Part shown: positions 1 through 20,000 of the stretch, piece after piece
Position numbering within the stretch: the first letter of the stretch is position 1
Layout of the letters: every line of letters begins with the position of its first letter
Assembly (NCBI GenBank): GCA_023231475.1
Contig: JALJEE010001557.1
Coordinates: 47,644-67,643 of the forward strand
Source: Seison nebaliae
Lineage: Eukaryota
Reading direction: 5' to 3'
Length of the DNA: 20,000 bases
Notes under the pieces: generated by a model
The model's input: only the letters and a program-made list of their open reading frames with translations
The model's database searches: none
What the model was told of the DNA's origin: nothing
Made by a program: the position numbers and the translations under genes

Positions 1-2512
1 AATGGAGATGTATGCGACTTTCTTATCGAATTCATTCGTTGGAAAAACATTTCCGGAGACAGTAAAGTTGAGAATATTTTGAGAAGAATATTTTTTATTT
101 TCCTTTCCCAGAATTTGTTTCACCACATTGAAATTACATTTAATCGCCATCGAAACATTCGATGCGAATGGTGTTCGACGATTACTCATTTTCCCTGGTG
201 GAGATGTGAAGATTATTGGGGGAACTCGTGCTTTCTTCATTACCGACAGTGCAGATGATGCAAAACGAGCATATTTTTATTGTGAAGATTGTCACAAAAA
301 CGTGACGAATTATTTGAACATTAAAAAATGTTCTTGCAAAACAAGTGAGTTCCACTATTACATTATAGTTCTATTTAGTCTTAGCTATACTTGTAGAGAA
401 TTATCATTTTCACATGTGAATTTCATACATAGAAAGATTCATACCTTTCGCATACCTTATTCTTTCTTTTTTCCATTTTATTTGTGGTGAAGGTCTTCAT
501 GTTTTAAAAACAGCTGTACAATATATGGGATGTTGGTGTTTTTCTTTTCTTCACCTCAATTGCGATTTTATTTAAAGTGAAATTGCGTCCCTCTAAATTT
601 TCTCGTATCGTCGAAGAACTAATATCAAATCGAGATCTCAAAAAATTGAGCAAACAAGATAAATCCACGAAAAATATTATAGAGGAATTAATGAAAAGTC
701 AATCAGAGATTCGTTAACTTTTATAATTTCCAATTTAAAATTCCCGTAATTCTCATTAGAAATGCCAGTAAGGAATACTCTGACGAATATCGTCTCTGCG
801 GAAGAAGTTTCACAGAAAAAACGGATTGCCGCATTCCGTAATAATTTCGATGGAAACGGAACGGTTAAAGCTGCGGTCACATCAGATAATGAAATGTTCG
901 ATGAAACGGGAATGTTCCATTGGTGTCCCACCCGTACATTAACTAGTTGTCTAGTCGTTAGAATTTTATTTTTTTTAAATATCCATTTATATTCACTTTT
1001 TCATAGAAACCGTTTGAGACATCGGTTAATTTCAAGAATCATGTATTAGTATTAATATTTGCTGATGAGGCAACACCGATGGTTGGTCTCCGGAATTTTG
1101 TTATGCCATTACGTGCATCCAATTTCCGTGGATCAGAATTGAAGGATATCATATTCGTTACTAGCAGTATCGAATGGATAAATCGAGAATGGGCATTTAT
1201 TTCCAATTTCAATAGAATTTATGTTGTTCATGAATGGCCGAATAAAAGAAGGATATTAAGATGGTTGAATATTGATTTATGTGATATGGCTGTCATCATG
1301 TCACCCAGTGATCGACATCAACATGAAGAACAATATTTAACAGACAAATCAGCTATCTTATGTTCATTGAACGTTAAAGCAATGAGATTTACTCGACTAC
1401 AAATGAACAACAGGAATCGCGAGTCAATTGATGACAGTCAACCGTTACATGTGTCTGGTGATCAAATTCCTATGATAACTGACTTGGGTTAATATATTTC
1501 TAACTATAAATATGTAAAATTTTAATAGAATTGTAAGTAAAAAATTTTTGTCATCAATTTTCATAAATTTCGATTTTAATAAATTTTTATAATTTTTCTA
1601 TGGAAAATTTTAGAAAATGACTTAAATGTACAATATTTGGAATCGGAAAACTCATCAAAACCTTCACCTCAACGAGAATTATATTTAACAATGCCATTCG
1701 CTTGTGGAACTGCATTTGCTTCATCTGTTTTAGATTCGATTGTCACGACGGTTTTTTCTTTCTTAATTCCAATTAATTCACTACCAAATTTTTTTTCAAA
1801 AGGCATTCTTTAATGCCGATGCGTTAAAGATGATTTCGTTGTTGATTACCGGAGGTACAACTCCAGAATTGGAGACAATGCTGGCAGAAGAAGGAATGGT
1901 GAAACCATCAACAGAATTATCGACGGAAACGTTAAATCAGAGAAATCGTTGTCGTCTTGTACAGATATGTATCTCCACATTATTCTCTCATTTAGTTAAA
2001 GTTAAAATTTTTAATTCTAAATTTTTTTTTGAATAAATTTTGTTTTATGGTAGGAAGGTAAATGTTATGGTGATTTGTTCGTAGAAGCATTAGACAATTA
2101 TCAAATGTTATGTTTGGGACTCTATCGATTCCGTGACGCCATTCCAAGGAAGAATGAAATAAGTGATTATGAAACAAATAATGCGATGGAGAGACCCAAA
2201 TTTTCAACGAGAAGATTCGTTATTTGTAATCCATCATACGACTACATCTTATTACCGTCCGATATGGTTTGTTTATTTTCTTTCATATTTCCTCTGGAGG
2301 AAAAGGAATTAAGTGCAAAAAAAAATTTGTTTCAACCTGTTTCTTTATCATAAGACCGGATACTGTCATATTTTCTGCTATGTCTTCTATTTTTCTGTTT
2401 CCCATCGAGAAATGTCTTCAAAATACTAAAAAACATTCTAATATTCTATTTTTCCTCGTAGGTGTTCGTACTTCAGCGTCCACAAATCTATGGTGCTTCA
2501 ACAACTATATAG
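1..2512 (+). CDS. slo: Slo1/BK (KCNMA1-like) large-conductance K+ channel, C-terminal RCK1-RCK2 part (5' end outside window). Exons: <1-66, 112-344, 578-712, 760-956, 1007-1487, 1614-1750, 1803-2000, 2054-2266, 2462-2512
   Basis: Spliced translation gives BK hallmarks in order: [52 protein letters not shown] (CKACH heme motif), [119 protein letters not shown]. All joins are GT..AG and keep frame. Exon 578-712 (RCK1-RCK2 linker) rests on frame and splice sites rather than homology. Confidence 0.95.
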
Positions 2513-4189
2513 ACGATTGCTTTAATGAATTTATTGAATAAGATGGAAAGGAAATGTGAAAAAATTCCATCTGGAAATCTGTAACAAATCTTCTGCGAAT
2601 GAGTCGCTCCGGCAATTATGACATAAATCGACAAATAACTTCCTCCTACCTAATTTCATTTATTTCATTCATCAAAATTTTTAATTTTCTTTCTTTCACT
2701 CCAAAATAAAATTGAGTGATCTTTTCATGTTCATTTCGTGTAATGAAGTTTCTAAAAAATTTGTTAAATGGAAAGAAACATCAAGAAATTTTCTCTCAGA
2801 AATTGTTTCTCACACATACAATTCGACTTCCCAATTCTTAACTTCTAATTCTATTTACGAGGTTTTTTTCAATAGAAGAATTATTGGGACGAACTACGAT
2901 ATAATAGAACATCGATTATTTTGAGAGAGGAAAATGTAAAGAAGAAAATTGTTCTCCAATTCCCTAACGATTTGATGATGATTGTTTAAAGACGATAATG
3001 TTCCATGCTGATAATTAGATCGCTAGCAGATTAATTGAATAATTCAATTTGACTCCGAACACAGAATAATTCGATAAGAAACTTGAAAGAACTTCTGTAA
3101 GGAATTCAATAGATTTCCATGTAATTTCTCCAACTCACTAGTTAGTTTGCAGTTACGGAACGTGATGATGAGAAGAGAAGATGGAGGAAGATCAATCCAC
3201 GCAAAATTATTAATATGGTATCTCGTTTCTGATAATTTTCGAATTTGGAGAATCCAAATTGTTTGTCATTTGAATATGAAATTCGGAGGAGTATTCACAC
3301 ACTTTCAACAACTTTAGTGGTGCGCATCAAATGGAATATTAATTAGATGTTATTGGTGAGTGACAATAATAAAGAAAATGAACGAACTATGTGAGAGACA
3401 GGAGAATCTTGATGATTCGTGTTCTGTTCGATGATGGACAGGTGAAATTCTCATTGGAAATGTGGATAGCGATCTTAGATTGAATGTTTGCCCAAAATGT
3501 ACACTTGTCCTGATTTCTAAGTAAATAGAAGATAGTCGTCCATGCAGATAGATATATAGATGTACATTCTTTACGTAATCTCTAAATTGAGGCATATCTA
3601 TAAAGAAATCTTTTTCGCTCTTCTTTTTCTTTTTCTTCTAAATTGTTGAATTTAATTATCCGGAAATATATCGTTGCAACGAAGATACATTCAGATATTC
3701 ACGATTTGATATCGTCTCTCTAAAATGAGGAAAATTCTTCTTTCTTATTTATCAATATCTATTAGTTCTTTCGCTGATTCATCTTTTCTATTTGTCAACC
3801 ACCGGACGAAAGAAAACAAACGTAAAACATCATTATCAAATCAAAACAATGAAAAGATGGAACGGAATTAATCCGATTTAATTATAATTTTATTATTAGA
3901 TAATGAGATCAATGAAGCAGGTATTTTTTTCTTTCAAGAATTAATGTATTCATAAATTATTCAAAAAAAATTTAAGCAAACCTTCCAACCAAACTCCCCC
4001 ATTTCCTCCTTTTCTTTCTATTTATATTTAATCTTTTATCTTTCTCATTCTCATCCATATCGACATAAATTTCTTTTTATTTTACAAAAATATTCGTTCT
4101 CTAATTCCTTAATAATCATCTCCACTTAAACTCGAACGATTCCATTCGTTTTATTTCTCCTCTTCTACATCCTTCTCCACTTTCAGATA

Positions 4190-18894: not shown

Positions 18895-18982
18895 TTCTCA
18901 TACAATCGCCAAATAATTTATTGTTTTGTAATTCCTTTACAATTACTATAGTTTAAATAAATTCATTGAAATATTTCAAAAA

Positions 18983-20000
18983 TTAATTCGAACTTTCATT
19001 TTCTTCCAATTGTGGACAGATACGATAAGCGGTTGAATAATTCCATCTTTTCTTCTTCGATTTATTGTGAATTTGCAAATAAGATCCTTTATCTATTCGA
19101 ACATTTATTCCCAGATGTATCAGAGCGATGTTCATCGATGCTCGTATCTGAAAAAGAAAAGTTTTAAATTCAAAATTTTATGAAGAAAAACCGGAATTAT
19201 TAAATGTCCAAATGGTTTGTTTAAATCGTGTAAATGGAAGAAATCCCATTTACTTCCATCATTCATCCATTCGGATGACTGACTTGTACCCAACGGTCGA
19301 AACTAATAGAAAAAAAGTTAATTTTTTTAAAAAGAAAAAGAAACTTCGAATGGAAATGATTCATCTATTAATTTAATGCACATATCATCAATTAATGCAC
19401 ATTCGATATTTCTTGTTAGATTTGTTAATAAATTATCGTAGAATGTTTTACTAAAATGAAGAAATTTTAAATTGAGGTAAGAATTTAAAAAGCGAGAACA
19501 TTATGGGGAAATTCTTCTTTGGTACATAATCGATTGACGTTCTGATATTCGAATAGAAAATCTGACGAAAAATTTATAATTTTTTTATCCGAAGACATAA
19601 TAAACATTTTCTTTTCGTAATTGAATCGATATATCGTCGAACAATGTCATTTTGGTGAAATTGTGACAGAGTTCAATTCGTGGTTCCAAATTTAAAATTT
19701 CGATATTGGATCTCCAATAAGGCAGTCGATATCGGTAAGTACAATAAGCAGATTTCTGATATTTTGAAATATTATGAAAAATATCAGACGACGATTTATC
19801 GTTTATTATCAAATCGTTTACCATCAAATTTGGATTGTAGAAATGATTTGTCTTTTTGAACGAAATTTGAGAATTTTTAGGAAATGAAAGAAACTTCTAG
19901 TCGAGATTGACATAAAGAGAAATATTTGTACTTCGTTAATTCGTCTTCTCGAATTTGCCATTGAGACAAGATGTCTTCTTTGTGAAAGGCATTTTCTGAA
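18983..20000 (-). CDS. Divergent prolyl 4-hydroxylase alpha-subunit-like protein, 3' part (5' end outside window). Exons >20000-19895, 19851-19606, 19561-19500, 19450-19345, 19302-19192, 19147-18983
   Basis: Five 42-49-nt GT..AG introns keep one open frame. KYKYFSLCQ resembles P4HA KYEMLCRG. KSAYCTYRYRLPYWRSNIEILNLEPRIELCHNF resembles LxCRY..PFLxLAPxKxExxxxDPxIxxxHD. LGINVRIDKGSYLQIHN..NYSTAYRICPQL resembles VGASVWPKKGTAVFWYN..DYSTRHAACPVL. The gene model is solid; the family assignment is moderate. Confidence 0.7.

Follow-up and report, generated by a model that had tools for sequence, protein, structure and literature searches.

A GTT-dominated 5' splice-site signature in a 20,000-nucleotide window of the Seison nebaliae genome

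Genes and donors of the window

We describe here the 5' splice sites (donors) in a 20,000-nucleotide (nt) stretch of the genome of Seison nebaliae (contig JALJEE010001557.1, positions 47,644 to 67,643, referred to below as the window), in which introns begin almost uniformly with GTT. Few features of the animal splice code are as stable as a purine at the third intron base (+3). Seison represents the seisonid branch (Seisonidea) of the rotifer-acanthocephalan clade and has a genome of 44-46 megabases with about 32% G+C, for which public genome and RNA data have been reported (PMC8351084). Three exons of the window gave 100% matches to S. nebaliae proteins: SNEBB_003209, the BK channel Slo1; SNEBB_003212, an NME8-like protein with a thioredoxin domain and three NDK domains that has four isoforms; and SNEBB_003214, an ABCA5-like protein. 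The other introns considered here lie in a PHD-finger gene, in PET117 and in a gene on the minus strand (18983-20000), which forms an open frame of 264 residues once its five introns are removed.

Twenty-nine donors were placed by exact mapping of the NCBI-annotated proteins (nine in Slo1, 15 over the four isoforms of the NME8-like gene and five in the ABCA5-like gene) and eight by reading frame only (two in the PHD-finger gene, one in PET117 and five in the minus-strand gene). All 37 introns have GT..AG ends that restore the conserved frame, the mapping having admitted only GT or GC starts and AG ends. The Seison donors are based on one window, its annotation, homology, reading frame and related DNA, and we infer that the listed junctions are used in RNA and that the pattern is genome-wide.

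GTT was found at 34 of the 37 donors in the six genes (26/29 in the annotated genes and 8/8 in those placed by frame), which extends the 31 of 34 counted in the original prediction; the coordinates named there were all correct, and its three exceptions (GTG at 345, GTG at 9756 and GTA at 14573) are unchanged. Past the GT, strong fixation is confined to +3 (A1, C0, G2, T34). The earlier description of +4 to +6 as nearly unconstrained holds for +4 (A12, C9, G5, T11) and +5 (A15, C6, G9, T7), but not for +6 (A3, C6, G5, T23), where the T of 23/37 donors opens a U-rich tract. A G at +5, previously counted in seven donors, is present in nine of the 37, four of them on short introns (532, 957, 5452, 10053) and five on long ones (345, 2267, 9397, 9679, 9905). 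The exon side is weak, with a G at -1 in 12/37 and AG before the donor in 3/37. Lengths of 42-55 nt apply to 26 introns, the same number as before in a total that is now 37, and the acceptors are TAG (25), CAG (8) and, as had been noticed, AAG (4). Five branch-point patterns sought 8-40 nt before the acceptor did not exceed shuffled sequences in either Seison or bdelloids.

At non-donor GT sites of the same genes the triplet is GTT in 221 of 588 cases (donors versus non-donors: odds ratio 19, p 3e-11). The GTT is not explained by base composition, because T occupies +4 and +5 in only 11/37 and 7/37 donors. Two known donor types were considered and rejected. Minor (U12-type) introns would carry the donor motif RTATCC, which occurs in 0/37. 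Shifted-register donors, reportedly described by Roca and Krainer in 2009 as beginning with GTT and having the consensus one base further in, should have a G at +6; this was found in 4/34 Seison GTT donors, and +6G followed by +7T in 0/34.

Placement of the junctions and comparison with other animals

Twenty-five GTT donors of the three genes that have homologues, all but 9679, were checked by scoring each in-frame alternative within 36 nt against Seison-free profiles. Annotation and profile scoring both support the introns of the NME8-like gene, on the plus strand, at 9290..9338 (49 nt, GTTTAT..CAG), 10053..10095 (43 nt, GTTCGT..TAG), 10709..10754 (46 nt, GTTGTG..CAG), 11170..11219 (50 nt, GTTTAT..TAG), 11365..11413 (49 nt, GTTGCA..TAG), 11668..11719 (52 nt, GTTCAT..TAG), 11865..11912 (48 nt, GTTAAT..TAG), 12021..12066 (46 nt, GTTTCC..TAG) and 12219..12264 (46 nt, GTTTTT..CAG), and those of the ABCA5-like gene, also on the plus strand, at 13699..13742 (44 nt, GTTCAT..TAG), 14974..15025 (52 nt, GTTATC..TAG), 15189..15230 (42 nt, GTTCCC..TAG) and 18424..18488 (65 nt, GTTTTT..CAG). 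The fifth ABCA5-like intron, 14573..14627 (plus strand, 55 nt, GTACAG..TAG), has the sole GTA donor.

If these junctions were misplaced, the true donors would be neighbouring GTA or GTG sites. This is very improbable in our judgement, although the junctions were placed by annotation, homology and frame, eight of them by frame only. Eighteen of the 25 GTT donors have no in-frame GTA or GTG alternative within 36 nt; four alternatives lose 17-50 bits and one loses just 3.7 bits. Ties with GTA or GTG occur at two of the 25: at 10292..10532 (plus strand, 241 nt, GTTAAT..TAG) a GTG at 10286 is equal by homology, and at the last NME8-like intron, 12295..12382 (plus strand, 88 nt, GTTAAC, with an alternative acceptor at 12325 in isoform P0036), a GTA at 12313 ties. 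At 713 a GTC alternative ties. Given foreign queries (bdelloid or mussel Slo1), a spliced aligner indifferent to the +3 base returned GTT at 67, 713, 1488 and 1751 with both; it deviated to GTC at 954 instead of 957 and to GTT at 1995 instead of 2001 (one query each), and it picked other junctions in the unaligned Slo1 linker around 345-577. Six intron positions are common to other animals, which also argues against misplacement, and the four NME8-like isoforms suggest that the NCBI models have transcript support behind them.

The introns placed by frame are those of the PHD-finger gene at 5452..5497 (plus strand, 46 nt, GTTAGT..TAG, in which the frame is joined by a PHD motif) and 5673..5735 (plus strand, 63 nt, GTTCCT..TAG, frame only), the PET117 intron at 13225..13269 (plus strand, 45 nt, GTTGAG..TAG, placed by frame and the Pfam PET117 family) and, by frame only, the five of the minus-strand gene: 19148..19191 (44 nt, GTTTTT..CAG), 19303..19344 (42 nt, GTTTCT..TAG), 19451..19499 (49 nt, GTTCTC..TAG), 19562..19605 (44 nt, GTTTAT..CAG) and 19852..19894 (43 nt, GTTTCT..AAG).

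Donors for comparison were obtained from a metagenome scan with the Adineta Slo1 protein, which yielded 79 loci, 18 of them bdelloid-like (best matched by a bdelloid protein, with an identity of 80% or more). Introns were kept when at least four of eight residues were identical, without gaps, on each side, and introns with the same first 20 bases were counted once. All of these donors belong to a single gene, the BK channel, and are not independent. At +3 the bdelloid donors have A75, G2 and T16 (n=93; median intron 55 nt) and those of other animals A42, G22, C3 and T4 (n=71), so that the typical animal purine is present at 77/93 bdelloid and 64/71 other animal introns versus 3/37 Seison donors. 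Counted by intron position, with four near-copies of locus L041 left out, bdelloids have a majority of A at 21/24 positions and of T at 3/24. The idea of a lineage-specific donor code, put forward in the original prediction, is thereby supported: GTT is found at 34/37 donors in Seison, 16/93 in bdelloids and 4/71 in other animals, and orthologous introns have been converted. At the level of sequence, the donor signature is real, strong and lineage-restricted.

The orthologous introns were provided by Slo1, all on the plus strand. Intron 67..111 (45 nt, GTTGAG..CAG; annotation and donor-blind aligner) is at a position common to bdelloids and other animals and is mixed in bdelloids (two GTA, two GTT). 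Introns 957..1006 (50 nt, GTTAGA..TAG) and 2267..2461 (195 nt, GTTTGT..TAG) have GTA in all bdelloid loci at the same positions (3/3 and 5/5, respectively). Intron 1488..1613 (126 nt, GTTAAT..TAG) has GTT in Seison and in 5/5 bdelloid loci, with GTA, GTC or GCG in other animals, and at 1751..1802 (52 nt, GTTTTT..AAG) GTA or GTG is found in 25/25 non-rotifer rows, some of them near-duplicates. Since orthologous positions have GTA or GTG elsewhere, old introns of Seison were converted to GTT in place and did not arise anew in a burst from one element. The other Slo1 introns are 532..577 (46 nt, GTTGGT..AAG; annotation and profile scoring), 713..759 (47 nt, GTTAAC..TAG; annotation, profile scoring and blind aligner), 2001..2053 (53 nt, GTTAAA..TAG; another GTT 6 nt upstream fits almost equally) and the exception at 345..492 (148 nt, GTGAGT..AAG; annotation only), which lies upstream of a 39-nt exon in the unaligned linker.

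The minority GTT-N-GT donors of bdelloids share with Seison the +3U, the short introns and the clade, and are a possible starting point for the change. They differ from the Seison donors in making up 17% of donors, in nearly always having a G at +5 (14/16 bdelloid versus 8/34 Seison GTT donors, p 3e-5) and in lacking a 5' U-tract. As the GTT donors of Seison are mostly without +5G and those of bdelloids have it, +3U looks preferred in Seison and not simply tolerated. Bdelloids are also informative on length: their introns are equally short, yet only 13/81 of the short ones begin with GTT. We therefore reject short length as the sole cause, and with it length-based intron definition alone, which had been offered earlier as one explanation. 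No monogonont or acanthocephalan donors were identified among the 79 loci, so the change may predate Seison alone.

A U-rich tract and possible readers of the +3 U

Behind the donor, the T fraction in Seison is 0.62 at +6..+15 versus 0.40 at +16..+25 (paired Wilcoxon p 2.5e-5; the +6..+15 interval was picked after viewing the profile, which makes the p values for the tract optimistic). The corresponding bdelloid fractions are 0.34 and 0.37, and 29/37 Seison introns but 22/93 bdelloid ones contain a TTTT run somewhere in +4..+20. At least five T in +6..+15 were found at 35/37 Seison donors, and GTT combined with at least five T at 32/37 donors versus 46/588 non-donor GT sites. The start signal of introns in the window is a two-part one, consisting of GTT and a U-rich tract at +6..+15. 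TIA proteins activate weak donors via downstream U-rich tracts and U1C (PMC2766253), and the Seison arrangement, in which the tract is no farther than about 20 nt from a donor with weak pairing to canonical U1, is like that of donors assisted by TIA-1 or Nam8. Unlike in Seison, however, the TIA-1/Nam8 tracts occur in 20-40% of introns, are centred at +15 to +25 and accompany the usual +3 purine (PMC2766253).

Relaxed recognition together with mutation biased towards T on the sense strand of introns might produce such introns with no selection on +3, as the introns are 46% T, their 5' part is 62% T and one donor has a GTA haplotype (described below). We regard this as quite improbable, since T makes up 92% at +3, flanked by the fixed GT on one side and by positions with 30% and 19% T on the other. 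The +3T excess persists over the T content of +7..+15 (p 2e-4, computed with 33/37 GTT). It also persists when the comparison is restricted to GT sites that have five or more T in +6..+15, where GTT makes up 32/35 at donors versus 46/122 at non-donors (p 6e-9). In addition, bdelloid introns are 44% T yet have 81% A at +3.

The closest known system is Entamoeba, which, like Seison, has U at +3 in nearly all introns; its introns begin with GUUUGU in 88-90% of cases, and its U1 carries a matching change (10.1101/2022.06.08.495308). Entamoeba differs in being a protist with few introns, whose GUUUGU is strict and whose U1 change has been demonstrated. In the animal Seison, by contrast, the window contains many introns, +4 and +5 are loose and a U-tract follows. 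The near-fixed +3 of Seison, for which +5 does not compensate, speaks for a specific reader, and from the fact that +4 faces position 5 of U1 (PMC10581693) it follows that +3 should face position 6. We tentatively favour, at a probability of roughly 40%, a compensatory change in the U1 small nuclear RNA (snRNA) that would read the +3U, with the U-rich tract recruiting U1 through a contact of the TIA-1/U1C type. An A would replace the U of U1 opposite +3, recruitment by the tract at +6..+15 would replace pairing at +4 and +5, and the optimum donor would move from GUAAGU to GUUAGU. Longer introns would lie nearer to this optimum, and introns of 42-55 nt would manage with GUU, the tract and cross-intron definition; a loss of METTL16 may have contributed, since +4A would then no longer be favoured.

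We rank the U1 change first because Entamoeba, the one published +3U lineage that we found, has one, and because the long introns converge on GTTAG and not on GTAAG. The uncompensated +3U of Seison is also what a U that has become the matched base should show. Among introns longer than 65 nt (n=9), where a strong donor matters most, seven have GTT, two GTG and none GTA, and both +4A (6/9 versus 6/28 in shorter introns, p 0.04) and +5G (5/9 versus 4/28, p 0.02; both uncorrected) are more frequent. It had been suggested that near-canonical donors are kept for long introns, which agrees weakly with the +4A and +5G counts but not with +3. Seison donors have a mean of 5.0 matches to the canonical 11-nt consensus versus 6.2 in bdelloids, and when U is counted as the matching +3 base the Seison mean becomes 5.9, a rise that follows arithmetically from +3T and lends no independent support.

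Several observations weigh against a changed U1. Most atypical-donor lineages (Saccharomycotina, Giardia, Trichomonas, Mamiellales) have kept a canonical U1. Entamoeba is strict at +4 to +6 and Seison is loose, with +4T in 11, +5G in nine and +6T in 23 of 37 donors and GTTTGT only once. The tract is barely weaker in long introns (5.8 T of 10, n=9) than in short ones (6.3, n=28), with no clear trade-off against donor strength, and the GTA haplotype at 19499 and the three donors that lack +3U indicate that +3U is not obligatory. The evidence consists of one window with 37 donors. An Rfam scan of the window found no snRNA and one chance-level match, and a U1-like pattern sought in viral contigs as a template for the Seison U1 had 0 matches.

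Selection might instead act at the hand-over to U6, with a canonical U1. Had METTL16 been lost, A43 of U6 would be unmethylated and +4A would bring no advantage; +3U could form a G-U wobble pair with G44 of U6, and the tract would bring in U1 by protein contact or lengthen the pairing with U6. METTL16 is Missing in Seisonidea and is Complete, Duplicated or Fragmented in 24/24 other syndermatan columns of a published BUSCO table (PMC12256650 Supplementary File 1), being one of 76 BUSCOs missing in Seison yet not in the acanthocephalan (PMC12256650), and +4A is reduced (12/37 versus 63/93 in bdelloids, p 3e-4). The +3 base faces U6 G44, an interaction that is only weak for a purine (PMC11732430). 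In Entamoeba, GUUUGU has been noted to pair better with U6 (10.1101/2022.06.08.495308), and two quoted examples from C. elegans mett-10 mutants shift from GUGAG to GUUG donors (PMC11347140). In its reduced +4A and its METTL16 score Seison resembles the shifts linked to METTL16 or SNRNP27K in yeasts and mutants (PMC10581693, PMC11347140, PMC11732430). Those shifts, however, go to +4U or AG//GU, with no +3U fixation reported, and Seison favours neither: with METTL16 lost, +4U and a strengthened exonic AG would be expected, and they are present at 11/37 and 3/37 donors. The weak +5G also speaks against a U6-centred reading, and a BUSCO score of Missing carries little weight, with false negatives likely: about 35% of BUSCOs are missing in Seison, and the core gene LSm2 is scored Missing as well. 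SNRNP27K is Complete in the same table (PMC12256650 Supplementary File 1). Selection at U6, which we rank second, seems to us rather unlikely but not negligible. U5-40K, SPF45 and LSm2 are likewise scored Missing in Seisonidea, either as real losses or as detection failures (PMC12256650 Supplementary File 1), and among the rows of that supplement that are listed there is no occurrence of LUC7 or "U1 small".

Alternatively, the snRNAs could be canonical and a changed protein, namely U1C, LUC7, PRP8 or a TIA-type factor reaching +3, could read the U directly. A single binding site would then cover both the +3U and the tract, and U1C is divergent in Entamoeba (10.1101/2022.06.08.495308), but the run of U is broken at +4 and +5 (30% and 19% T), unlike the footprint of a single U-binding protein, and we think a protein reader unlikely. 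The U1 and U6 routes can both hold. On the most far-reaching view, Seison would be the first animal with a genome-wide recoded 5' splice site, with U1 matched to GUU, METTL16 and the N6-methyladenosine of U6 gone, and the U-tract acting as a core signal on ancestral introns converted in place; in this full form we consider the proposal doubtful.

Our literature search found no report of a GTT donor code for Seison, rotifers or any animal, within a coverage that excluded subscription journals and the supplements of most genome papers. The available parts of PMC8351084 and PMC12256650 contain nothing on donor sequence, and that of PMC10125929 describes alternative splicing of a Seison lamin only. 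As far as this search reached, the signature is new for animals, and it belongs to the known class of atypical donor codes. An intron-rich animal whose older introns were converted to +3U offers a natural experiment on the reader of +3, be it U1, U6 or a protein. It also bears on how a core signal can change at many sites at once, a question open so far only to study in intron-poor protists and yeasts. In practical terms, Seison genes may be overlooked by gene finders that were trained on other animals, and the gene loss reported for Seison would then be inflated.

Alternative exons, haplotypes and neighbouring features

Two exons of the NME8-like gene, 9646-9755 (exon A) and 9801-9904 (exon B), are alternative thioredoxin active-site exons; the annotation uses either, and joining them over the 45-nt gap shifts the frame. 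One of the pair has a WxGPC-type motif and the other does not. The preceding donor (9397..9645, plus strand, GTTAGT) leads over 249 nt to exon A or over 404 nt to exon B (acceptor 9800). Exon A is followed by the exceptional intron 9756..9980 (225 nt, GTGAAT) and exon B by 9905..9980 (76 nt, GTTCGT..TAG), and an alternative donor within exon A is annotated in isoform P0035 (9679..9800, 122 nt, GTTCGG), all on the plus strand. The proposal that two of the three non-GTT donors flank candidate alternative exons is borne out by the annotation for 9756, which follows a mutually exclusive exon; for 345 one isoform is on record, and 14573 belongs to an ordinary 55-nt intron. The 39-nt Slo1 exon downstream of the 345 intron (493-531, plus strand) lies in the linker after a KKCSCK motif, where vertebrates have the alternatively spliced STREX site. 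In bdelloid Slo1 (L041 and other loci) the intron at residue 293 is 121-127 nt long, twice the usual length, with GTTCGT in 7/7 covering loci, and may hold a conserved element or an alternative exon.

The minus-strand gene (18983-20000) is divergent, and searches of Pfam and PDB gave no match of note; parts of it may resemble prolyl 4-hydroxylase alpha. On the plus strand, 4190-4516 encodes a neuropeptide precursor whose N-terminus is signal-like and in which an amidated peptide, putatively of the buccalin or allatostatin-A kind, occurs four times, set off by KR sites. Between Slo1 and this gene, 2900-3900 has a coding-like composition with open frames of 70-95 codons on both strands, two of which had no match in Pfam.

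Of four sequencing runs compared with the window, two covered it as DNA and two did not cover it, and none gave spliced joints. Haplotype variation was seen at one donor. In both DNA runs a second haplotype changes the donor at 19499, placed by frame only, from GTT to GTA, with +5 and +6 also changed (depth 10/28 and 14/45); over 19494-19598 it carries at least eight substitutions and small indels and may be an allele or a paralogue. Run X2 also contains, at low depth, a divergent Slo1 copy with a likeness of about 80-88% that crosses the donors 532, 1488, 1751 and 2001; its gaps and breaks are inside introns, and none of the 40/180 differences listed is at a donor. A heterozygosity patch at 4986-8536, over the PHD-finger gene, includes in-frame deletions of 12 and 9 bases, and 8537-19493 is a single unbroken contig in both DNA runs.

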